Assembly: GCA_000165345.1 (NCBI GenBank)
Contig: CM000435.1
Span: 896,001 to 960,000, forward strand
DNA length: 64,000 nucleotides
Reading direction: 5' to 3'
Within the stretch, counting starts at the first letter, position 1, and each line of letters starts with the position of its first letter. The notes under the pieces were generated by a model, which saw nothing but the letters and a program-made list of their open reading frames with translations, was not told where the DNA came from and ran no database searches. Below are positions 2,124 through 2,418 of this stretch, piece after piece. The translations under genes and the position numbers were made by a program.

Positions 2124-2418
2124 TTATATTTTCACCTTGTCAATACACTCCCACATAATTACTGAATTCCCTCTAATTACTGTAGTTCCAATGCTTTTCT
2201 TAGTTGAATCCAATACTTCGGTTGTATTTTCAAGTACTAAGTTCATAAAGTTATCGTACCCACGCAGGCTACCAATAATTTGACGATTTCCATTTAATTT
2301 AACTATAAGTGATTAATTTAATTCATAAGCAGATATGATTAAGTGCAAACTTACTGTATAATTGTTTGTCAATAAACTTTCTGAGATCTGCAGGTGAGCC
2401 CGATTTAAAAATTGCCAT
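2124..2418 (-). CDS. SmG: Small nuclear ribonucleoprotein SmG, 2 exons (2355..2418, 2124..2302; intron 2303..2354)
   Basis: Spliced minus-strand model. ATG at 2418, donor GTAAGT at 2354, acceptor ...CACTTATAG. Product MAIFKSGSPADLRKFIDKQLY|ILKLNGNRQIIGSLRGYDNFMNLVLENTTEV...IGTTVIRGNSVIMWECIDKVKI (80 aa) carries Sm1/Sm2 motifs and aligns to SNRPG. Not in ORF track. Confidence 0.75.

Follow-up and report, generated by a model that had tools for sequence, protein, structure and literature searches.

SmG is a core Sm protein of the U1, U2, U4 and U5 snRNPs and of the U7 snRNP, and its described members (human SNRPG, S. pombe Smg1 and S. cerevisiae Smx2) are proteins of 76-77 aa that consist of one Sm domain, in which both motifs (Sm1 and Sm2) are intact, and lack a C-terminal extension. 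In the U1 and U4 snRNP structures, residues of loops L3 and L5 (an aromatic-x-Asn stretch and the Arg of an R-G pair) hold the Sm-site uridine. The same Sm fold, an α-helix at the N-terminus and then an antiparallel β-sheet of five strands that is strongly bent, is found in LSm7, a U6 snRNA-associated protein whose position in the LSm ring is equivalent to that of SmG in the Sm ring. The gene described here spans 2124-2418 of the window (the whole stretch of 64,000 nt that was analysed), which shows zero mismatches to Cryptosporidium parvum chromosome 7 (CP141124.1, CP029786.1) over the 5,418 nt compared. Its product is 80 aa long and 47-53% identical to the three SmG proteins named above, and it likewise has a single Sm domain, intact Sm1 and Sm2 motifs and no C-terminal extension. 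Relative to human SNRPG, the product has a slightly extended N-terminal tail (MAIFKSGS), and WEC stands near the C-terminus in place of the human LEA, with WEC being common to the alveolate-like homologues found. There is no difference of substance between C. parvum SmG and known SmG, and the gene is a real, ordinary and already known one with a public model.

Gene structure and product

The sequence-only reading of this stretch had proposed a 64-nt exon, a 52-nt intron and a 179-nt exon that together encode 80 aa, and its coordinates and arithmetic proved exact, with the gene lying on the minus strand:

2355..2418, minus strand: SmG exon 1, 64 nt, with the ATG at 2418..2416, carrying codons 1-21 and the first base of codon 22
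2303..2354, minus strand: SmG intron, 52 nt, GT-AG, phase 1, within codon 22 (Ile)
2124..2302, minus strand: SmG exon 2, 179 nt with the TAA at 2126..2124 included, carrying the rest of codon 22 through codon 80

The joined CDS of 243 nt has an intact frame and translates to the 80-aa sequence MAIFKSGSPADLRKFIDKQLYIKLNGNRQIIGSLRGYDNFMNLVLENTTEVLDSTKKSIGTTVIRGNSVIMWECIDKVKI, and its ATG is the first one downstream of an in-frame stop situated six codons 5′. Exon 1 codes for the N-terminal tail and the α-helix (MAIFKSGSPADLRKFIDKQLY), and exon 2 for β-strands 1-5 with the Sm1 and Sm2 motifs. The intron, which is 75% A+T, begins with GTAAGTTTGC and ends with CACTTATAG; at the donor side the exon bases aca are followed by GTAAGTTT, and at the acceptor side CACTTATAG is followed by tta. 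If the transcript were left unspliced, translation would end after 31 aa. It had also been stated that no ORF of at least 60 aa exists at the locus, which holds for start-to-stop ORFs (the longest being 48, 40, 37 and 31 aa) but not for stop-to-stop frames, where the frame spanning exon 2 reaches 62 codons (2312..2127).

The textbook Sm1 and Sm2 motifs attributed to the product are both intact when it is aligned with SmG orthologues. Sm1 reads G32-x-L34-R-G-Y-D38-x-F40-M41-N42-L-V-L and Sm2 reads I64-R65-G66-N-S68, and the invariant columns of the alignment include G32, L34, R35, G36, D38, M41, N42 and V44 in the former and G60, R65, G66 and S68 in the latter. F40-M41-N42 and R65-G66 of C. parvum align to F37-M38-N39 and R63-G64 of the human protein, such that the human loop residues F37, N39 and R63 have their equivalents in F40, N42 and R65. 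A search with the LSM/Sm profile, which had been suggested as a check, gave a match of the product to Pfam LSM (PF01423) with E=1.2e-21 and 76.6 bits (the cut-off being 23.4 bits), joining residues 11-71 to profile positions 2-63 of 66, a signal well beyond what chance would give. An AlphaFold model of the product (pLDDT 71.9) contains an N-terminal helix at residues 12-15 and long, bent strands at 19-24, 28-37, 43-52 and 55-64, with strand β5 not forming in this monomer model of moderate confidence. When the PDB was searched with this model, 377 matches were returned at E<=0.001, and nearly all of the best 50 belong to Sm, LSm and archaeal Sm-like chains. The best fold matches are SmG chains, from human, S. 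pombe and thermophile spliceosomes and from U1 and U7 snRNPs, with TM scores of 0.73-0.82, rmsd of 1.3-2.0 Å and 45-53% identity. With PF01423 above threshold and an Sm fold, the product is a protein of the Sm/LSm superfamily.

The likeness to SNRPG that had been claimed is borne out by 47% identity to the human protein in the alignment with orthologues, and by a sequence search of solved structures in which SmG, from nine organisms, takes all nine top places among distinct PDB sequences, with matches over the full length (E=7.6e-21 for S. pombe, 1.2e-18 for human and 9.3e-14 for S. cerevisiae, the ninth). Size fits as well, as the protein of 80 aa ends 9 residues past Sm2 without an RG-rich or other C-terminal tail. 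Judged by these sequence comparisons, the product is closest to SmG over its full length, and none of SmB, D1, D2, D3, E, F or the LSm proteins comes as close. A second profile, built from non-Cryptosporidium SmG sequences only, was run against the 1,233 six-frame segments of the window, where it matched the exon 2 segment (E=1.1e-30, positions 19-79) and the exon 1 segment (E=0.0013, positions 4-24), the two matches abutting at the intron. No further segment among the 1,233 matched this profile, and the profile searches found no other Sm/LSm exons in the 64-kb window.

Full-length SmG homologues were also seen on short JGI/ENA metagenome contigs (P0008-P0014), with 51-68% identity and WEC present. 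If prokaryote-style gene finders made these calls, each homologue would be a single ORF, and the set would point to an intronless SmG in related uncultured protists.

Intron conservation in Cryptosporidium

The SmG genes of C. hominis, C. tyzzeri, C. ubiquitum (XP_028876082.1), C. felis, C. xiaoi and C. muris have the same two-exon layout, the first exon being 64 nt, the intron in phase 1 and the donor GTAAGTT, as in C. parvum. Their neighbours are also those of C. parvum, a PX-domain gene on one side and PLRG1/Prp46 on the other. C. muris departs from this arrangement in small ways, as its SmG has one additional C-terminal residue and two genes, an OTU gene and a further small one, interrupt the run of SmG neighbours at its locus. 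The gene models of other species were possibly copied from one another, and agreement between annotations is not independent; the patterns of substitutions and indels at the DNA level are independent of the annotations. The intron was derived in six species by establishing which GT..AG removal yields each product, and it lies after nt 64, in phase 1, in 6/6 of them, with the following lengths:

C. parvum: 52 nt
C. hominis: 52 nt
C. ubiquitum: 53 nt
C. felis: 50 nt
C. xiaoi: 56 nt
C. muris: 87 nt

In these six introns the donor GTAAGTT is unchanged and the 3′ AG is always present. Substitutions in the SmG exons fall mostly at third codon positions. Over the whole CDS, differences from C. parvum at codon positions 1/2/3 amount to 5/5/26 in C. 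ubiquitum, 11/6/43 in C. felis and 17/10/48 in C. xiaoi, and within exon 1 they amount to 0/0/5, 3/0/12 and 5/2/10, respectively. Alignment of C. parvum with C. ubiquitum gives 92% identity in exon 1 and 83% in exon 2, neither with gaps, while the intron interior is 60% identical with a 1-nt indel and the flanks are 50-61% identical, the interior of the intron thus diverging at about the rate of flanking intergenic DNA. This pattern of change indicates that purifying selection acts on both exons, and the comparison of the six sequences likewise indicates that the position of the intron is conserved across the genus.

Twelve frame-preserving GT..AG pairs are found at the locus, and 2354..2303 is the only one that keeps a complete Sm domain. 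Each of the eleven alternative pairs removes part of the Sm fold, and these were rejected. From the sequence evidence, 2303..2354 is assigned as a frame-restoring U2-type GT-AG intron that is conserved among orthologues, and we infer that it is spliced in vivo. A sequence scan for the 35-nt spliced SmG junction gave no match among JGI metagenome contigs, and exact-protein look-ups returned genomic contigs only, with zero transcript assemblies. Among the public records that hold the two-exon product is QOY40718.1, which we take, by its accession series, to belong to the IOWA-ATCC re-annotation assembly. The introns of the IOWA-ATCC re-annotation are 100% RNA-seq-supported (Baptista et al., PMC8744675), which lends the SmG junction indirect support from transcripts.

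Two other readings of the locus have to be weighed against that of a canonical, spliced SmG gene. The product could be an Sm-fold paralogue, such as LSm7 or another LSm, rather than the SmG of the Sm ring, since LSm7 is the next-best family and the best non-SmG PDB sequence (E=3.1e-11, followed by SmF at 2.8e-05 and SmE at 5.7e-05), and LSm chains are present among the fold matches, as expected from the shared Sm fold. However, the full-length SmG matches from nine organisms all have E-values 3-10 orders of magnitude better than that of LSm7. The LSm7 chains are also longer than C. parvum SmG (103-119 aa) and their far weaker, partial match aligns mostly over residues 10-53, and the name that public curators give the protein is SmG. 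We therefore consider an LSm identity very improbable.

Even less credence can be given to a single-exon truncated gene or decaying pseudogene, in which the exon 2 frame would be real and exon 1 a chance ORF. Such a reading would agree with the first-generation Iowa II record EAZ51592.1, which is a 62-aa single-exon model, and with the exon 2 frame matching Pfam LSM by itself (1.7e-18), but that 62-codon frame has no 5′ start codon, and its first ATG would give just 40 aa from which Sm1 is absent. Exon 1, for its part, does not behave as a chance ORF, as it matches the N-terminal helix of SmG in the profile free of Cryptosporidium sequences, shows third-position-biased substitutions and zero indels in four other species, and compares with C. 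ubiquitum at 92% identity against 50% for the 5′ flank. Moreover, the length of the intron varies from 50 to 87 nt and in five of the six species is not a multiple of three, yet splicing restores the frame every time.

With gene structure, Sm domain, SmG orthology and prior annotation established, we regard it as nearly certain that the locus is the C. parvum chromosome 7 SmG (SNRPG) gene, a spliced, one-intron gene for one of the seven Sm core proteins. Its minus-strand primary transcript would carry the single 52-nt U2-type GT-AG intron, which the spliceosome would remove, joining the 64-nt exon to the 179-nt exon, and the resulting 80-aa product would be almost entirely one Sm fold. The 64-kb window contains neither the six remaining Sm genes nor the snRNAs, and ring assembly and snRNA binding by C. 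parvum SmG are therefore proposed by analogy only. As in the solved yeast and human complexes, SmG would first associate with SmE and SmF, SmD1/D2 and SmB/D3 would join next, and the heptameric ring so formed would close round the uridine-rich Sm site of the U1, U2, U4 and U5 snRNAs, and the Sm ring on these snRNAs would constitute the stable core of the spliceosomal snRNPs.

It is also conceivable, because the unspliced mRNA stops after 31 aa, that the intron has been kept to couple SmG output to splicing capacity and thereby autoregulate the supply of the snRNP core, an idea that we regard as a long shot. Introns have largely disappeared from the genome, and ~10% of genes retain one (PMC4637869). 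The phase-1 intron is found at the same SmG codon from the intestinal species to the gastric C. muris, and this positional conservation is the one observation that speaks for autoregulation, the interior of the intron being without extra sequence constraint.

Neighbouring genes and ATG8

Three features around the SmG gene bear on its setting:

730..1992, plus strand: PLRG1/Prp46, a WD40 protein of the spliceosome NineTeen complex (human PLRG1 E=1.2e-106, yeast Prp46 ~1e-91)
2482..2489, plus strand: E2F-like motif TTTGGCGG, 64-71 nt upstream of the SmG ATG
5107..5601, minus strand: ATG8, with three exons at 5601..5571 (31 nt), 5521..5413 (109 nt) and 5371..5107 (265 nt)

PLRG1/Prp46 and SmG are arranged tail-to-tail with 131 nt between their stop codons, and their 3′ ends would therefore be very close or overlapping. 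Two genes of the splicing machinery are thus adjacent and convergent. On the other side, SmG and the PX-domain gene are divergent, with an intergenic interval (2419..3265) of 847 nt in which no ORF of at least 60 aa is found. This interval is longer than the published mean of ~550-590 nt, and the equivalent interval in C. muris (L007 519..1253) holds a 244-aa OTU-domain gene that is absent from C. parvum. The motif TTTGGCGG within the C. parvum interval is a putative SmG promoter element. It resembles TTTGGCGGGAAV (motif 4), which is over-represented and very common in the upstream regions of C. parvum genes, those for RNA processing included (PMC3734150). C. parvum, C. hominis and C. xiaoi all carry a CCGCC core at a similar position, for which C. 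ubiquitum has the variant CCGCA and C. felis the variant GCCGC. An intron in the 5′-UTR, suggested by the TTTGCAG directly before the SmG ATG, was considered and rejected, as the AG at this point is inconsistent across species. Rfam gave one match above the gathering threshold in the whole window, a tRNA (16870..16940, plus strand, 57.8 bits), and found no other known RNA families near SmG.

ATG8, which lies ~2.7 kb from SmG, has introns of 49 and 41 nt that each open with GTAAGTTTT, and its 134-aa product matches Pfam ATG8 with E=1.1e-32. The gene has been described as cgd7_3990 (PMC3228817). The octamer GTAAGTTT opens all three characterised introns, that of SmG and those of ATG8, and it also occurs at 28397, 28727, 29693, 34112 and 44874. 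Over the window it has 8 matches against 3.9 expected, and at least 8 were reached in 9/100 shuffles; its use as a statistical intron signal was dropped, the enrichment not being significant. These five further sites may be other short introns, or they may be chance occurrences, because the octamer count is not above expectation.

Annotation record and wider meaning

The sequence-only reading had called the SmG gene unannotated, a claim that current records contradict. The exact 80-aa protein, from an identical two-exon model, is present in NCBI/UniProt as 'Small nuclear ribonucleoprotein G' (QOY40718.1, WKS79087.1, KAL5367715.1 and TRY50445.1), and the C. hominis records CUV07385.1 and OLQ18062.1 hold a one-residue variant under the same name. 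The range of the public SmG gene is 295 bp, equal to the span of 2124-2418, and its neighbours match. Of the SmG models, only that of the first-generation Iowa II entry (EAZ51592.1 / XP_001388399.1) is deficient, being a 62-aa 'partial' protein that starts SLIV. We traced its start to position 2312 of the window, which lies within the intron, and this model therefore corresponds to the unspliced stop-to-stop frame. No paper came up in a full-text literature search that combined Cryptosporidium with 'small nuclear ribonucleoprotein G'.

From the same locus it had been concluded that ORF-based annotation of this genome misses micro-exon genes. The term micro-exon is usually kept for exons of ~30 nt or less, and the 64-nt exon of SmG is short but outside it. 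ATG8 offers a test of the wider claim. Its first-generation models were 116 aa ('partial') or 83 aa, and among older and other annotations the lengths are 116 aa (partial), 105 aa or 83 aa, from which it follows that the 31-nt first exon is the part most often missed. Current records, including QOY40720.1 and KAL5367717.1, carry the exact 134-aa protein. As the current SmG and ATG8 records are both correct and the first-generation annotation alone is deficient, the claim does not hold for the genome as it is now annotated. The 2015 re-annotation put introns in 10.8% of genes, up from 4.3% (Isaza et al., PMC4637869, the supplement of which does not name the SmG gene), and a further 1,926 gene models were updated in the 2022 re-annotation (Baptista et al., PMC8744675). 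The under-calling of introns in C. parvum annotation was thus a real weakness, but one that is historical, published and corrected.

The first-generation annotation erred alike at SmG and ATG8, and the RNA-seq-based re-annotations have since corrected both. The lesson is one of method: in this compact, intron-poor genome, ORF-only reading splits small genes with short first exons, and readers blind to the annotation therefore keep rediscovering them. The biological weight of the finding is small, as SmG is a universal eukaryotic housekeeping protein whose C. parvum model is already public.
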